A DNA stretch of 63,674 nucleotides, counting the filler, from Globobulimina sp. (taxonomy: Eukaryota), in NCBI GenBank assembly GCA_003354225.1. It is 56 parts of 56 records of this genome, joined end to end, with 100 filler letters (N's around TTAATTAATTAA, not from the genome) between each part and the next. Parts side by side here need not be neighbours in the genome. Positions count along the whole stretch, not along the records: positions 21,651 to 22,689 come from PIVH01025115.1; 55 more parts are not named here. One strand, written 5' to 3'. Every line of letters begins with the position of its first letter. The first letter of the stretch is position 1. The notes under the pieces were generated by a model, which was not told the origin of the DNA, did no database searches, and saw only the letters and a list, made by a program, of their open reading frames with translations. Position numbers and translations under genes: made by a program. Positions 3 to 35,218 of the stretch are shown one piece after another.

Positions 3-1040
3 TCATTTTGGCAAAAATATCTTGAGCCAATACTGCCATATGATGAACATTATAAACCTGGAAAATGTTATGGCCTCTACAAAGACCATAAAACCACAAC
101 AACGATTTACAAACCATTCCGAGGTATTTGCAGTGCACACAATACTTCAATTGAATATATTTGTAGATGGCTAGCATATTATTTACGTGCGCCACAAATG
201 AATGCATCCGATACATTATTAATTGACATGCAACACTTCCAACATTGGATCATTATACATAATAACGATCCGGATATTGACTGGAAAAACAACCATAAAA
301 ACATTTTTATTGCCGGATGGGATGTTGTTTGTATGTATGGTGCGATTGACACAGAATATGGAAATACTTTGAATTCGGACATGATCGATATATATTATAC
401 AGATTTACGGAGATTAATATTAGAAACATTTAACAATAATGATTTTATACCAAACAAAAAAGAATTTAGATTGGCATTGGATATTGTAATGAAAAACAAC
501 ATCGTCAGATTTAACAACAAATTCTTTAAACAAACAAATGGTGGATCTATGGGTCCCGCACATACACCGCCTTGGGCAGATATTGCGATGATACCAATTA
601 TAAGAAAAGCAAAACAATTATTAAACAATATACTAATTAAAAATGGCATGAAAATCTATCGTGACGATTTGACTATGATTTGGACGGGAAATTTTGACTC
701 AGCACATCTGATAACAACGACATTGAATCAAATTAATAAAAATATACAATTTGAGATGGAAGAACCGAAAGATTTAATTATTGGGAAACAAATACATTAT
801 TTAAACAGCACAGTAACTTTAAACGAAGATGGCTTATCAAGCCAACATTACATAAAACCAATGAAATGTACAAATCCTTTGGACCCAGATAGCCATCACA
901 ACAAAAGCATATTCTATGCGATGCCAATCACGCTATTACGCGAAGTCAGAATCGTTTCTGACGATAAATATTTACAGAAAGCGATGAGCTGAATAGTACT
1001 GGAATTATTACCAGCGGGCTATACAAGAAATGCTGTATTA
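3..1040 (+). mobile_element. Penelope-like retroelement reverse transcriptase fragment, probably degenerate
   Basis: Open frame from position 3: CYGLYKDHK...PFRGICS (cf. YGLPKIHK..PLRPIVS), GWDVVCMY, FNNKFFKQTNGGSMG, YRDD, LNQINKNIQFEME, YIKP...DSHH. TGA at 990-992, but plausible homology continues (..LPAGY). Confidence 0.85.
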
Positions 1041-1140
1041 NNNNNNNNNNNNNNNNNNNNNNNNNNNNNNNNNNNNNNNNNNNNTTAATTAATTAANNNN
1101 NNNNNNNNNNNNNNNNNNNNNNNNNNNNNNNNNNNNNNNN
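1041..1140. other. Artificial contig linker (44 N + TTAATTAATTAA + 44 N), repeated 55 times about every 1.14 kb
   Basis: Identical spacer with stops in all six frames; flanking segments shrink monotonically from 1040 to 1038 bp. Confidence 0.99.
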
Positions 1141-2025
1141 ATTCTTTTTGCTTCTTGTAAGACATTGGAGTTGTTGATTGTTTGTTCAGGACATATTTTG
1201 ATTGCTACTGGTAACATATGATTCTTATATTTCAGTTGACCATACCATATTTCTCCGTATTCTCCTTCACCAAGTTTCCTCTCCAATGTCAATCGTTCAC
1301 CTGATAACATCCATGACGGCCGTTTGATTGCTCGACCTAATTTAGCTTCATTTTTGCTCACTGATAATCTGCCACGTTTACATGCATAAACCAATTCAAC
1401 TGCCGTACCATATCATCTAAAAAAATGAAACTGTACATGTCTATGTATCATTTGATATACAAGTACTGTATGGTCACTTCGTTTAATTAAACAGCAGTCA
1501 ATGTCACGACCATTTGCGTTTCGAGGCTCACTATTGTTTTACTACCCCGAATAAGGCAATTACTACTGTATTTTTGAGAAATTTTCCTTTAAAAACGGTA
1601 GTACGTACTTTCCTTGGTTAAAGGTAGTGGAACAATCACCAGTGAGTCTTGAAACGCAAATAGTCATTACTTAGGCTGCGGTTATGTACTAAATTATAGC
1701 GGTAATCTATAAATGTACAGTATACTAGAACCACGGAGTATGATAATGCTTACTTTTGGTCCGGTCCTTTCCATCCTTTGTTATTGTAATATTTGAGTTG
1801 TGAATGTTCTAATTTTCCTTGCCATCGTACAGTAACCAATGTCTTTATTTCACCTTGTCGATCAACAATTCGTACCAACCAATCACCTTCTTCTTTGAGC
1901 AATTCATTAGCTTCTCTGCTTGACAAAAATCCATGATAGAACGATGCATCTTCCAGTTTGTTTCCATTTCCTTCACTTGATGTACCTCCACTCTTTGTAC
2001 TGTCTTTAGATGAATCAGCCCACAT
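1141..2025 (-). CDS. SH2 + tyrosine kinase, Fer/Fes-like (nematode-type), partial, intron 1753-1417
   Basis: SH2 FYHGFLSSREANELLKEEGDWLVR; kinase N-lobe WMLSGERLTLERKLGEGEYGEIWYG...VAIK; GTAAGC donor and tttttttAG acceptor. The simplest splice gives an in-frame TGA right after the junction. Confidence 0.8.
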
Positions 2026-2508
2026 TACATAAACACGACCGGTTAGTATGATAGTAAAGAAATAATATACTCAGTAAAACAAACGTGACGGCAAGTGAGA
2101 AAACACGTGTGATTAACCATATTATGTCTTTATCATGAAACACTAATAATTTTCTTTCAGAAGTCGATCAAGAGGTCGTTNNNNNNNNNNNNNNNNNNNN
2201 NNNNNNNNNNNNNNNNNNNNNNNNTTAATTAATTAANNNNNNNNNNNNNNNNNNNNNNNNNNNNNNNNNNNNNNNNNNNNATATTTAATACATCCCGTCT
2301 ATGATAAGTAGTAATGTGAATTTTGTGTAATTAAATTTAGATCTCATTTTCAGTCATAGTTTATATAAAAAGAAGTGGTTTGGTTCATTGTTTGTCTTAA
2401 TTTCCTGATATTATTCCAGAATAGTTAACTTTTTTGGCTTAGTTTCGTTTCGTTTCATTTCATGTGTGCGGGGGAACATTCAGCCAGGGTCTAAGTCTGG
2501 CTCCATGC

Positions 2509-3320
2509 TCACCGATTGCTTGAACCTCCGGTGAAATTATAAAGTTGGTGGGGTTGTATACCCCAAGGAAAGTGGAAAGATTTGGATTTGGCATAGCGTA
2601 TCGAGTTGAATTTGGTGGTTATGTAATTGGAGTTATTTGGGTGGTTTCTTCCAATTTCCGCTAAGATAACAGCTATTTGGTTAAAGGGTGATTTTACTTT
2701 CCACAAAAGTATTTTGTGGTTCCTTACATAGTTTTGTGTGTTTTTGAAGAGGATGGAGATTGGATTCTTTTTCGTGTTTCTCGTATTATTATAAGGGGGA
2801 TGAAGTTGAAGAGAGAATCAGTGAATATTAGGATTCTTCGGTTATTGGTGTTGATTTTGTGGTGATTCAGTACGAATTTGGATTTGTGGATGGCAAATAA
2901 CTCGCCGTAGTGATTGGATTGCGCACCTATTGGCTGTGAGAAGCAATGTACGTTGTTTTGATTGATGATGCAGATTCCAATGCCTGTGGTGTTTGTTTGC
3001 GGATCGTGGGATGAATCTGTTGCTATTATCATGTCATTTGGATCTAGTTTATGTTGGTAGCGGTGCCATTCATTAAGATTCTCATTACATATATGGAACA
3101 TTATCATCTTGGAGGGGACTAAGTTATGCTTGGCTCGTATTCTCCTGATGGTGTTCTTATTGTTGTTAATCTGCAGTACGTGGTGTATCCATCTATGGCA
3201 TTGGGAGATTACATCCCTATACAATGTATGTTTTGTTATGTTGATATTTATCTGTTTGTGCTTGTACAGATTTACGTTGGTGCACATTTCTATTAGTCTT
3301 TGCATGTAAAGGTGGTGATG
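2509..3320 (-). mobile_element. Degenerate retroelement RNase H domain
   Basis: IIATDSS...GIGI...SNHYGELFAI...ILIFTDS match RNase HI acidic motifs; WKVKS follows in another frame (frameshift near 2720-2760). Confidence 0.7.
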
Positions 3321-5700: not shown

Positions 5701-6575
5701 TGAAAATGCAAGTTTCAACTCAGTTTTATACTGGACTCGTGAAGTCACCATTGTTTTTCTACCACTGATATGACCACTACGTTTGGACCGCTGTCGAGCA
5801 GGCGATATCTAGAACATTTCAAAATAATCCCTACTTTAACAATAATGCATGAATACCTTTTTGTGGTTTTTGTAAGCCATCCAGAACATGAGCCCATAAG
5901 TTCCAATGTATATCGGAACAACGACTGCACCGCTTACCACATTGGACATGAACCACAGATCATAGTGAAATTTGTTTGGTTTGTCCATGAGCAATGCCAA
6001 TGAACTGCCATTTCGTGTTGTTACATAGGTGGTGCCATATAGTATGCTATTAAACCAATATGAGCCATTCAGAAGTATGGCTGCCGCGACACTCCCCAAG
6101 AAACACCAAAATGGCTTACGTCCACTCCACCACTAAAAAGGCTTTTGGACAGAATATTATTTATTTTTTAGTGTTCCTTGTCCAATGTCATTTGAACAAA
6201 AATACTTACATCATCATATTTGAATGGCCAGCCAAGAGCAGTAAGACGGTTTACTGCAAGTATGATATTAAGAATTCGAGATAATTGAGTCCCAAACCCA
6301 TATGACGCGAACGTTATGGTGGCAAATAATTTGGCCCCTCTATAGAATGATGGTAAGATATTCCACCGTGGAATGCCATATCCCCCACTCCAAATAAATG
6401 CTCGGGCTACATCGGAAAAACTCAGGAACATAAATAGCTTATAAAATGGTGGTGAAAGGTCAGTTTTGCGAAATTTTATAAAAGTAACGATCAGCAAAAT
6501 GTACACTAAAAATAGAAAGTAAGAAACAAAAAAGTAAAACCATTCATATACTCTTAGCACTACTGATTGAGACAT
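5701..6575 (-). CDS. Nematode-type serpentine chemoreceptor (srg/srv-like 7TM), 3 exons visible
   Basis: SPPFYKLF, LAVNRLTALGWPFKY, later ELKL. Introns 6209-6133 and 5856-5809 join in frame (KYDD|WWSGRKPF; NHKK|ISPAR). Confidence 0.8.
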
Positions 6576-6840
6576 TTTGAGTAGTTGATACCGAAACTCT
6601 CTACAAGGTTTGTTTCCAGATTGCCGGTAATGTATTGTAACCATAGAAACTATAAAGCATATTGTTCATATTTCCATAACTAAAGCTATTAGAGAAGCAT
6701 AATAGTTCTGCCTTCAACAGCGACCTATAATGCACTTTCGNNNNNNNNNNNNNNNNNNNNNNNNNNNNNNNNNNNNNNNNNNNNTTAATTAATTAANNNN
6801 NNNNNNNNNNNNNNNNNNNNNNNNNNNNNNNNNNNNNNNN

Positions 6841-18413: not shown

Positions 18414-18519
18414 GTTATATTGATAGTAGCATACACATGGCATGTAGAAATATAGAATAGTAACCATATGCATGTTGCCATGTTTAGTAGTTCTCACTTA
18501 AAAAACCAACGGCCCTCTG

Positions 18520-19272
18520 ATGATGTCAACTAGTTACATACACTTTATCATCATTGCCTGCCTCATACAACTACTCACTTCTCAATTGTACGTACTGCAG
18601 CCATACTCTATAACAACTGATGACCACGATGCATTATGCCGTTTTCAATACGACCAAAATATAGCATCAATCCACTCGAATATACAAAACGCTGAAGCAA
18701 ATTTGGCGAGAGCATCAAATAAGGTACTCATTGGCTTAACAGATGAAGTCATCGAAGGTGAGTGGATATTCATAGATGGGACACCTTGGAATTACGGTAC
18801 AACATTCAATGTTCCACCATGGAATATCGATGAACCAAATGATTTATCCGGAGAAGACTGTGTTGAAATCGGCAATTCAGGATTATGGAATGATAACGAT
18901 TGTACTACAAAACTATTTGCTTTGTGCAATTATCCACAGCAACACTTTGTGATCAATGATCCATTAAATTACCAACGAATATTAACCCCCGGAAACGTTA
19001 TTGGTAGCATTGACATTTTAGATGAGATACATATTCAATTCGACATCACAATTCATTCGCTTCCAAGTGGAGGAAATGAATCGCTTCCAAGTGGATCCAT
19101 TTTGCATTTTGGTGATGATGATTTGCAGCGATATCCCGGAATCTATATTAACGGCGTGGACAATTTTTTTCATTTTGTTTTTTCTCAGCCAGGTACCTGG
19201 AATCTGTCAGCAAAAACAGCTTTTAATTTTATAACTTTGGAACACGCATATCATATTTCAATGTATCAGAGT
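18520..19272 (+). CDS. Secreted C-type lectin + LamG/ConA-like domain protein
   Basis: Signal peptide; IGLTD..EGEWIFIDG, EPND..EDCVE..WND..C; then IDILDEIHIQFDI...ILHFGD...YPGIYING. Confidence 0.85.
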
Positions 19273-21650: not shown

Positions 21651-22689
21651 GCGGCACCAACCCGCCCCATAAAAAGATATGTCCTCCAAACGCGCGGCCT
21701 TTCGCCAAATTTTGAAATAGCGCCGAATTATACATATCGTGCGTTCGCGCTGCCCACAATCCCTCCGCCATAGCCGTATACATATGTAGTAAACCCGCGG
21801 GGAACATGGATAAAAACATCTGAGCCGCAATGCCTCCATTCAACGACCAAAATGCCACAGACACAATCTTGGGAGACCAATATTCCTCTTTCACCGTATG
21901 CTGCACACAAAATAACACGCCGGCGATGGCAATGTTGCCCTTCACGCCCCACATGGCAGCATGGGCGTGGTTGCCAGTCAAATATGTCGAATGCATATAA
22001 TTAACCACTGGCAAATTGATAAATGAGCCAATGTTCCGGCACCAAATACATTCCAGAAGTTGACGCCCAACATAACAACCACACTCCGCGCATAATATGT
22101 TTCTGATTTCCTTTCGCTTTCTCTAATTCCGCCTTTTCCCGCATTTGAATGAATTTCCACGCATCCATCGTCAACACAATAAGCGGCATAACTTGCGTGG
22201 TGGAGAAGGCAGAGCCCGTCGCAATGACTCCCGTTGGCTTCGCAATCCAATAAAAATTATGCCCGACACCAATGGTGGCAGTCAAAAGAACAACATCACA
22301 GCGATGGACGTGTCGCGTTCGGCAGCCTTTTTGCTCACTAATCCCATCTCGCGGTACAAGAAGGCCACAATCACAGTGGTGAAGACCTCGAATGTCACCT
22401 CCACCCACATGTGCACCACCATCCATCTCCAGAAGTCCGACACTACGAAATTCGTTTTCGGCGTCACTTTCAAGCTGAAAAATAGAAACCAAACCATCAC
22501 CAAACTGCCGTAGAAGACCCAGGCCGGAGTCGACCAGATGGTGTTCCACGTGATGTACGAGTAAACGCCACGGAATAATATCAAAATCCATAATACAAAG
22601 CCACATAACAATAAATCCTGGAATATACGGCCCAATTCCATGAATTCCCAGCCCTGCGATCGCCACAATCAAACAGCCGACAAATAAGA
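21651..22689 (-). pseudogene. nod: qNor-family enzyme of nitric oxide dismutase (Nod) type, C-terminal half, with three frameshifts
   Basis: Reconstructed: SQGWEFMELGR...DFWRWMVVHMWVEVTFEVFTT...TATIGVGHNFYWIAKPTG..FSTTQVMPL...NFWNVFGAG..GSFINLPVVNY..YLTGNHAHAAMWGVKGN...GRAFGGHIFLWGG. Confidence 0.9.
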
Positions 22690-34179: not shown

Positions 34180-35218
34180 AACTATCTATGTAACAATAAT
34201 TATAACTTATCACATTCCAATTGGGAGGATACATGTTTATTTTATTATGATGCACATTTAGCATCGATACATAATGCTTCACAACTCCTCGAAGCACAAA
34301 CTACTGCTAATTATACTCATTTTGTATGGATTGGTGCTAGCGATACTGCAGAAGAGGGTACATGGCTATGGACTGACAATACAGCATTTGATTATGGTTT
34401 AAATTATTCACAACTTCCGTGGACCACTGGTGAACCAAATGATTCAGGAGGAGTAGAAGACTGTGTTGAACTAAGGGCCATATTTAATGGATTGTGGAAT
34501 GATGACTCTTGTTCGAAGTTAAAAAATGGATTATGCGCTTTTCCCATACCAACGCATGTAATCAATGACAAGTCGAGCTATGTACGTACACGACAGCAAC
34601 CAGGCTATATCGGAATGATTGACATTTTGGATGAAATATATATTGAGTTTTATATAACATTCACGTCCTGGCCAGCTGGTTGGGGGAATATACTACAATT
34701 TGGTGATAGTGACACACAGAAATATCCAGGAATATATATTAATGGAGTCACACATGTATGTACTTATTTGCATAATATATATAAAATATTAATACTGTAT
34801 ATTCATATTAAATAACAACAGAATGTCATGTCCAGTTTTGCCACAGTGACCACATCAAATCCAGAACAATCCACAACAACATCTGGTTATGCATTGAACA
34901 CTGAATATCATTATACTTTGAATCAAACGCAAAGAAGGTTAACAGTCACATTTGGTGCCGATTATGTGTATGATGACATATATGATTATACTGTGGAAGT
35001 TGCAGGCGTTGCTGTATCGCATCCCATTGTAATGAATCAGGCAATTAATTTAGGCAGTAATTGGGACGATGACTTTGGTGCTGCGATAAGAAATTTAGTA
35101 GTGACTACAGCAAATTCACCTGAGACAACATTCTGGTATTATATTTGCGATTGGGACGACAGGTGGACGACACGTATTGGTGGCACCTGGTCTTGGGCAG
35201 CTATTGGAAGCGGAATTG
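34180..35218 (+). CDS. C-type lectin + LamG-like protein, paralog of the 18520 gene, intron about 34756-34821
   Basis: LASIHN, VWIG..D...EGTW.WTD, EPND..EDCVE..WNDD.C, IDILDEIYIEF...ILQFGD..KYPGIYING. Confidence 0.85.

Follow-up and report, generated by a model that had tools for sequence, protein, structure and literature searches.

Does a gene fragment in the genome assembly of Globobulimina sp. (GCA_003354225.1) belong to an enzyme that dismutates nitric oxide (NO), is it carried by the foraminifer itself, and can the copy still make a protein? The question is raised by one contig (PIVH01025115.1) in the window, which is the whole stretch of DNA analysed here, 63,674 bases in length. The window is not one locus but a concatenation of 56 individual contigs, 1038-1040 bp long and arranged by length, with TTAATTAATTAA linkers flanked by runs of N between them. 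Since these contigs are unrelated, the neighbours of positions 21651-22689 are without physical linkage to them. A preliminary description had proposed a nitric oxide dismutase (Nod)-type enzyme of the qNor family in a protist-dominated assembly. What stands of that proposal overall is a Nod-type qNor fragment that falls within a eukaryote clade, while the gene is already published, the copy is broken and the suggested oxygenic route is unproven. Taken as a whole, the contig is very probably an internal fragment of the foraminiferal Nod-signature 'Nor' family, with this copy most likely being a paralogue or allele that lost its function recently.

Protist-dominated is a fair term for the assembly. 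Among the 39 longest open frames of the other window contigs, 20 match a Pfam family at E ≤ 1e-4, and the matched domains are mostly typical of eukaryotes, including RCC1, MATH, C-type lectin and C2H2 zinc fingers, in addition to protein kinase, ribosomal L10a and MBOAT.

Several other contigs of the window carry content worth recording. C-type lectin domains are encoded on two of them (18502-19272 and 34180-34812), an RNase H domain that is probably part of a retroelement lies at 2727-3320, and the region 6171-6665 weakly resembles a serpentine receptor family of nematode type (33.6 bits). The contig at 59223-60260 consists of one end-to-end open frame of 346 aa with an NRPS condensation domain (263 bits) at 26% GC, a content unusual for a protist-type assembly.

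Nod-type residues in a qNor-family fragment

The contig corresponds to approximately residues 405-755 of G. stearothermophilus qNOR (PDB 3AYF), whose numbering is used throughout, with equivalences taken from HMMER alignments; numbering against 3AYF in this way reproduced the published residue numbers. The three longest in-frame pieces all have qNOR chains (3AYF) as their best PDB matches (E 1.5e-24, 1.9e-05 and 3e-21), and the 3' piece matches Pfam PF00115 (COX1) with 48 bits against a cut-off of 34.8 (E 1.1e-12). The qNor-family matches of the contig are thus far beyond chance. The five motifs on which the preliminary description was built (HMWVEV, GHNFYW, STTQV, NHAHAAM and RAFGG) are real and had been read correctly, as HMMER alignment of the minus strand to 3AYF confirmed (Table 1).

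The motifs combine retained and replaced residues. His508, Glu512 and His559 are kept, as are His651 and His653, which are ligands of low-spin heme b and heme b3; the second heme b ligand falls outside the fragment, on its upstream side. The proposed change of one FeB His to Asn, of Glu to Gln and the loss of the quinol-site Asp were borne out as His560 to Asn, Glu581 to Gln and Asp746 to Gly. The canonical metal-site set of His508, His559, His560 and Glu512 is therefore incomplete, as position 560 is Asn. Asp746 is the only one of the three quinol-site residues within the fragment; the contig starts too far downstream to include His328 and Glu332, whose places are taken by Ile and Ser, respectively, in P0006, a relative of full length. 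According to the accessible text of Ettwig et al. 2012 (PMC3413370), a putative Nod is marked by replacement of a metal-ligand His by Asn, of a Glu in the catalytic vicinity by Gln, and by the lack of a proper quinol site, and all three features are found here, the last with His328 and Glu332 taken from P0006.

Canonical qNOR, represented by 3AYF and by plasmid-encoded qNor of Ralstonia, Sphingobium and Streptomyces, shares the PF00115 fold, the heme ligands, His508, Glu512 and His559 with the contig. However, His560, Glu581 and Asp746 are replaced in the contig, which is only 30.8% identical to Ralstonia qNor over the fragment. Identity as a canonical qNor was rejected on the residue tests together with the trees described below. 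The same His to Asn and Glu to Gln changes and the loss of the quinol site occur in M. oxyfera DAMO_2434 and DAMO_2437 and in the Nod of strain HdN1 (Ettwig et al. 2012, PMC3413370). Yet, these Nod proteins are only distantly related, as the nearest bacterial matches reach ~58-60% identity to the contig over the fragment, and HdN1 Nod is 51% identical to P0002, a close relative of the contig. The motifs differ as well, with GISHNFYW and STLQV in bacterial Nod-like genes and GVGHNFYW and STTQV in the contig. In contrast to the bacterial Nod systems, the gene described here comes from a eukaryote and has no known hydrocarbon monooxygenase context.

Table 1 Features of the Nod-like contig, in window coordinates (residue numbers of substituted and retained positions follow 3AYF)
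Feature	Position	Strand	Remarks
Whole contig, internal qNor-family (Nod-like) gene fragment	21651..22689	-	1039 bp, off both ends
Frame-2 piece LFVGCLIVAIAG, 12 residues	22652..22687	-	Matches residues 311-323 of P0002
Junction of ~71-nt loss, frame 2 to 0	22642..22666	-	Sequence present in P0002 and P0006
Frame-0 piece SQGWEF...VMLFF, 125 aa	22285..22659	-	Holds HMWVEV
HMWVEV (His508, Glu512 kept)	22396-22413	-	HMMER to 3AYF, E 1.5e-24
Frameshift 1, frame 0 to 2	22283..22289	-	One base lost in T run (TTTT at 22285)
Frame-2 piece LTATIG...RGVWL, 70 aa	22076..22285	-	Holds GHNFYW and STTQV
GHNFYW (His559 kept, His560 to Asn)	22247-22264	-	Aligned to GHHYYY of 3AYF
STTQV (Glu581 to Gln)	22190-22204	-	Aligned to SALEV of 3AYF
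Frameshift 2, frame 2 to 1	22073..22076	-	TT (22074-22075) against TTT, a Phe codon, in relatives
Frame-1 piece MLGVNFWNVFGAGTL, 15 aa	22029..22073	-	Translation
Frameshift 3, frame 1 to 0	22027..22031	-	GG (~22029); relatives appear to have GGG
Frame-0 piece GSFINL...GGLVP, 126 aa	21652..22029	-	Holds NHAHAAM and RAFGG
Loss of a Tyr codon	21988-22008	-	VVNY-MHS against VVNYYMHS in P0001 and P0002
NHAHAAM (His651, His653 kept)	21952-21972	-	Aligned to AHGHAAM of 3AYF, E 3e-21
RAFGG (Asp746 to Gly)	21682-21696	-	HMMER to 3AYF, E 3e-21

Breaks in the gene copy and their cause

Translation of the contig requires frames 0, 2, 1 and 0 in turn and thus three frame breaks, each of which is one base lost in a short homopolymer (a T or G run). 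Near the 5' end, the LFVGCLIVAIAG piece and the following SQGWEF... piece lie on diagonals of the P0002 alignment that are offset by 71 nt, so that about 23 codons and 2 nt are missing at this point, less than 50 nt from the contig end. With three frameshifts, the ~71-nt gap and one lost codon, no intact open reading frame is present, and the gene copy as assembled cannot make an enzyme. Programmed frameshifting, RNA editing and an alternative genetic code were considered as causes of the breaks and rejected, since relatives carry plain extra bases at these places and the other contigs read normally.

Public sequencing runs bear on whether the lesions are real. Parts of the stretch are carried by 13 public runs from four studies (top share 0.48), none of which is listed as RNA. 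Logan contigs from four of these runs (X1, X2, X6 and X8), each from a different study, were aligned to the Nod-like contig; depths derive from the contigs and give no basis for ranking expression. At frameshift 1, contigs of X1 and X2 have an extra base after 22283, and those of X1, X2, X6 and X8 have one after 22285; at frameshift 2, a base is inserted after 22073 in each of the four runs. Near frameshift 3, contigs of X2 and X8 have loose ends at 22034. At the junction of the ~71-nt loss, contigs of X6 and X8 have loose ends at 22661 that run on into normal upstream coding sequence. The DNA-like run X2 holds near-identical pieces in which the broken and the extra-base forms are both present, with the extra-base form accounting for a depth of 20 of 57.4 at 22073. 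Record 12 of X2 spans 21955-22066, including shift 3 and the Tyr loss, with one other letter and no gap, and therefore carries the window's form of shift 3. As X2 is possibly the source data of the window assembly, this agreement is not independent. The lower run cover in bins 22001-22035 and 22281-22315 was given no weight as evidence.

Some contigs of X2 also run out of the gene into AT-rich sequence, at 22215 and at 22617, and in one X2 contig 22258 and 22553 are linked through 39 other letters. These exits and this joint could be introns in paralogues, rearranged or truncated copies, or chimeras.

A real, recently inactivated copy appears somewhat likelier than an assembly error. Homopolymer frameshifts are a classic pattern of sequencing error, and assembly artefacts are common near contig ends. 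The copy could thus be intact in the organism, with the one-base losses, the 71-nt gap and the lost codon all introduced by homopolymer miscalls or by the collapse of a multi-copy family at low coverage. This is a possibility to be taken seriously, though a doubtful one: all three shifts do lie in T or G runs, the 71-nt gap is located at a contig end and the extra base at shifts 1 and 2 is found in contigs of other runs, but the Logan contigs of X2 reproduce shift 3 and the codon loss with one mismatch and no gap, and part of the X2 depth at shifts 1 and 2 is without the extra base. Homopolymers also abound in the remaining, AT-rich contigs of the window, but 4 of these 55 have an uninterrupted frame over the full 1038 nt (329-346 aa), which shows that the assembly is not generally full of indels. 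Five separate lesions per 1 kb are, moreover, many for one contig. The contig carries few amino-acid changes at conserved sites, differing at only 2 clade-invariant positions where other members of its clade differ at 0-4, and 29 of the 39 variant places listed (28 further ones exist) are third codon positions. Both features count in favour of an intact copy and against a long-dead pseudogene, with no sign of long-relaxed constraint. In this preferred reading, the window copy would be a paralogue or allele lying beside intact copies in the same organism.

Relatives, phylogenetic position and host

A word-seeded protein search with the first in-frame piece as query retrieved 343 proteins at E ≤ 1e-10 among 378 candidates. 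The top match, P0001, is 98% identical over the first 128 aa and 92.6% identical over 336 columns of the whole fragment, followed by P0002 with 84.5% identity and about 16 further matches with 65-82% identity, all of the latter on contigs of 1-5 kb. Bacterial matches reach at most 60% identity over the whole fragment. His-Asn stands at positions 559/560 in 118 of the 120 listed proteins and His-His in none, the other two being fragments that do not include the site. In one relative, P0017 (1141 aa), about 150 Nod-like residues at the start, several of them changed (e.g., HMRVEV and DHNFYW), give way to a long stretch of unrelated sequence containing ankyrin repeats, which suggests a chimera at the transcript or contig level or a fused pseudogene.

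The preliminary description rightly noted that the family is not without precedent in foraminifera. The first row of the alignment printed by Woehle et al. 2018 (PMC6783311, Data S1C), 'Nor I: GloG15_CONTIG49717:890-3289(+)' from Globobulimina, differs from the contig at ~13 of ~334 aligned residues, or ~96% identity as counted by eye. Nor I and Nor II of Globobulimina belong to the same family and share the motifs HMWVEV, GVGHNFYW, FSTTQV, NHAH and RAFGG (PMC6783311). Nor I is intronless, occupying one uninterrupted interval of 2400 nt (890-3289), so the absence of a visible intron, which the preliminary description had recorded correctly, is to be expected of the contig. In contrast to Nor I, the window copy has three frameshifts, the ~71-nt gap, the lost Tyr codon and the ~13 residue differences, and its upstream 12 residues agree at only 7 of 12 positions. 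Nor fragments of Brizalina in the supplement of the same study bear GHNFYW and STTQV as well (PMC6783311). Nod-like Nor transcripts without the quinol site and with Nod catalytic-site substitutions have been described from Nonionella stella and Bolivina argentea, and in the accessible part of that study they are reported to cluster with Globobulimina Nor (Gomaa et al. 2021, PMC8153729), a likeness drawn here from the description only. The Nod-like residues of foraminiferal Nor were already discussed in both papers, as their accessible text makes clear (PMC6783311, PMC8153729). Judged by its sequence, the contig is essentially the published Globobulimina Nor, and as that gene is already known from denitrifying foraminifera, it is a rediscovery and not a new enzyme.

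Two trees place the contig outside both canonical qNor and the bacterial clades. In tree 1 (79 rows, 371 columns), the contig groups with 26 sequences from short contigs or metagenomes in a 27-row clade (SH-aLRT 100, stem 0.55). This clade sits within bacterial Nod-like proteins and is divided from the three distant plasmid qNor outgroups of Ralstonia, Sphingobium and Streptomyces by a long branch with full support. Tree 2 (106 rows, LG+G4) includes the 80 best of 182 prokaryote relatives of P0002. None of these 80 prokaryote-genome homologues falls inside the 22-row clade of the contig (SH-aLRT 100), and each of them has H-N and Q. The reference Nod of HdN1 (L146) is placed elsewhere in this H-N/Q family, outside the contig's clade, so that the contig groups with the Nod cluster rather than with canonical qNor. 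Both trees were built without the Nod of M. oxyfera, which forms the neighbour clade of foraminiferal Nor according to the accessible text of Woehle et al. 2018 (PMC6783311). The nearest named bacteria in tree 2 are Alphaproteobacteria (Terasakiella, Rhodospirillales), with weak backbone support of 85-86. The contig thus lies in a fully supported clade apart from the prokaryote homologues (SH-aLRT 100), and its ~96% identity to Nor I (by eye) groups it with foraminiferal Nor; the printed alignment together with the Brizalina fragments suggests that members of this clade are foraminiferal. Searches for close copies elsewhere gave the same picture. Among one genome each of 185,579 prokaryote species, the 182 relatives of P0002 reach at best 56% identity, and the best match to P0002 among 72,556 plasmids is only 32% identical.

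The lack of a visible intron and a GC content above that of its neighbours had led the preliminary description to leave the host of the contig open. The GC difference itself is real, since the GC content of the contig is 0.481 against 0.263-0.419 in the other 55 window contigs, but these are joined contigs and not physical neighbours. GC3 is likewise high, at 0.62, where the other contigs' longest open frames give 0.14-0.53, and as GC3 of the ribosomal protein L10a gene in the same window is only 0.31, high expression alone does not explain the outlier. Flanks, an intron and poly(A) are all absent from the contig, which therefore holds no physical tie to host DNA of its own.

Metagenome contigs supply the flanks that the contig lacks. 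A scan of metagenomes with P0001 gave no match above 72% identity and yielded ten loci within the clade (L001-L010) at 66-72% identity, whose Nod-like genes are intronless and split, within the eukaryote-type clade, into at least three subclades. The flanks of these loci have less long-open-frame cover than those of 30 bacterial loci, and none of 66 flanking open frames of at least 90 aa reaches the Pfam cut-off, with one sub-threshold DEK_C match, while 13 of 25 flank frames from five bacterial control loci do so (25 of 99 listed frames were tried). In L006 (L006:1220-1545 and L006:1678-4043), a CT microsatellite of ~310 nt stands directly upstream of the ATG and a GACA repeat lies downstream. 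The gene is GC-richer than its flanks in 8 of the 10 loci, which makes the elevated GC and GC3 of the contig look inherent to the gene rather than a mark of a foreign genome. L001-L010 may come from eukaryotes beyond the benthic foraminifera studied so far, and a 2024 preprint places two ODZ sequences in a 'eukaryotic Globobulimina clade'. Two of the loci have a long open frame immediately ahead of a shortened Nod-like frame (665 aa), at L009:2-961 (320 aa) and at L010:411-1199; this upstream frame has only the sub-threshold DEK_C match and may represent a neighbouring gene or an N-terminus that is split or extended.

On this evidence, the host question is tipped by the trees and the flanks of the clade loci towards the foraminifer. 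Although the contig has no flanks of its own, a host (foraminiferal-type) origin appears much more likely than a symbiont origin, given the prokaryote-free clade and the eukaryote-like flanks of the metagenome contigs within it. Derivation from a bacterial symbiont, a prey organism or a contaminant is very improbable. Such a source would account for a contig that is the GC and GC3 outlier of the window and has neither intron nor flanks, in a family of bacterial origin whose Nod-like relatives are widespread in marine bacteria. Yet, it would have to be reconciled with a clade that holds none of the 80 prokaryote homologues, with a best prokaryote identity of 56%, and with the ~96% identity (by eye) between the contig and a published gene that lies, on a foraminiferal genome contig, beside a eukaryote-specific gene, an adjacency reported for one foraminiferal Nor gene in the accessible text of Woehle et al. 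2018 (PMC6783311). Metagenome contigs of the clade are moreover without bacterial neighbours and have microsatellite flanks, and their genes show the same GC excess. Under the favoured foraminiferal origin, the contig would be an internal piece of an intronless, nuclear-type 'Nor' family of denitrifying rotaliid foraminifera, itself a qNor derivative of bacterial origin with alphaproteobacterial, weakly supported nearest neighbours.

Turnover of nitric oxide and significance

An intact member of the family is predicted to be a heme-copper-oxidase membrane protein of 12-14 helices that retains the histidines coordinating heme b and heme b3 as well as His508, Glu512 and His559 of the non-heme metal site. 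Asn would take the place of His560 and Gln that of Glu581, and the quinol-binding residues His328, Glu332 and Asp746 would be gone. With the metal site modified and the quinol residues lost, NO would be turned over at a modified binuclear centre without electrons from quinol, and the product would be either N2O or N2 and O2, of which published physiology favours N2O in vivo.

The published evidence on the product of foraminiferal NO turnover is divided. For bacterial Nod, Ettwig et al. 2012 (PMC3413370) reasoned, in the text accessible to us, that there is no external electron uptake and that two NO may recombine to N2 and O2. From the accessible portion of Gomaa et al. 2021 (PMC8153729), Nod is favoured for the foraminiferal enzyme on sequence grounds and isotope tests are asked for, while the same paper cites acetylene-block experiments in which N2O is an intermediate. 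N2O production was measured in both Globobulimina species by Woehle et al. 2018 (PMC6783311), whose accessible text concludes that the function is 'not Nod-like'. The preliminary description had inferred a eukaryotic oxygenic denitrification route and had named N2O instead of N2 and O2 as the product that would speak against it; N2O is what has been published for Globobulimina. It is on these N2O measurements and the acetylene-block data that N2O-forming NO turnover through a non-quinol electron route appears more likely in vivo than dismutation. A genuine NO dismutase activity of the intact enzyme in foraminifera (2 NO to N2 and O2), providing an internal source of oxygen, is unlikely. The enzyme's full signature of Asn at 560, Gln at 581 and loss of His328, Glu332 (from P0006) and Asp746 is the one that defines putative Nod, and dismutation is the preference of Gomaa et al. 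2021, but the measurements in Globobulimina and the acetylene-block intermediate point the other way, no biochemical characterisation of any Nod has been published according to a 2024 preprint, and no cryo-EM structure of a Nod was found in a search of the literature from 2021 on.

Publications already cover the gene, its Nod-like residues and its place in the phylogeny. What is added here is that the family has at least one apparently defective copy beside intact ones, that no close copy occurs in prokaryote genomes of 185,579 species, and that related intronless genes with eukaryote-like flanks are found on metagenome contigs. As a sink of marine fixed nitrogen, denitrification by foraminifera is sizeable, and its NO-converting step would yield either N2O, a greenhouse gas, or N2 and O2. 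A further-reaching reading, which we consider quite improbable, would have the eukaryote-type Nod-like enzyme dismutate NO in the cell and the family be a dynamic, multi-copy nuclear gene family, with a freshly inactivated paralogue in the window and subclades with eukaryote-like flanks in water-column metagenomes (L001-L010). If true, it would extend the range of the family beyond the benthic foraminifera studied so far.
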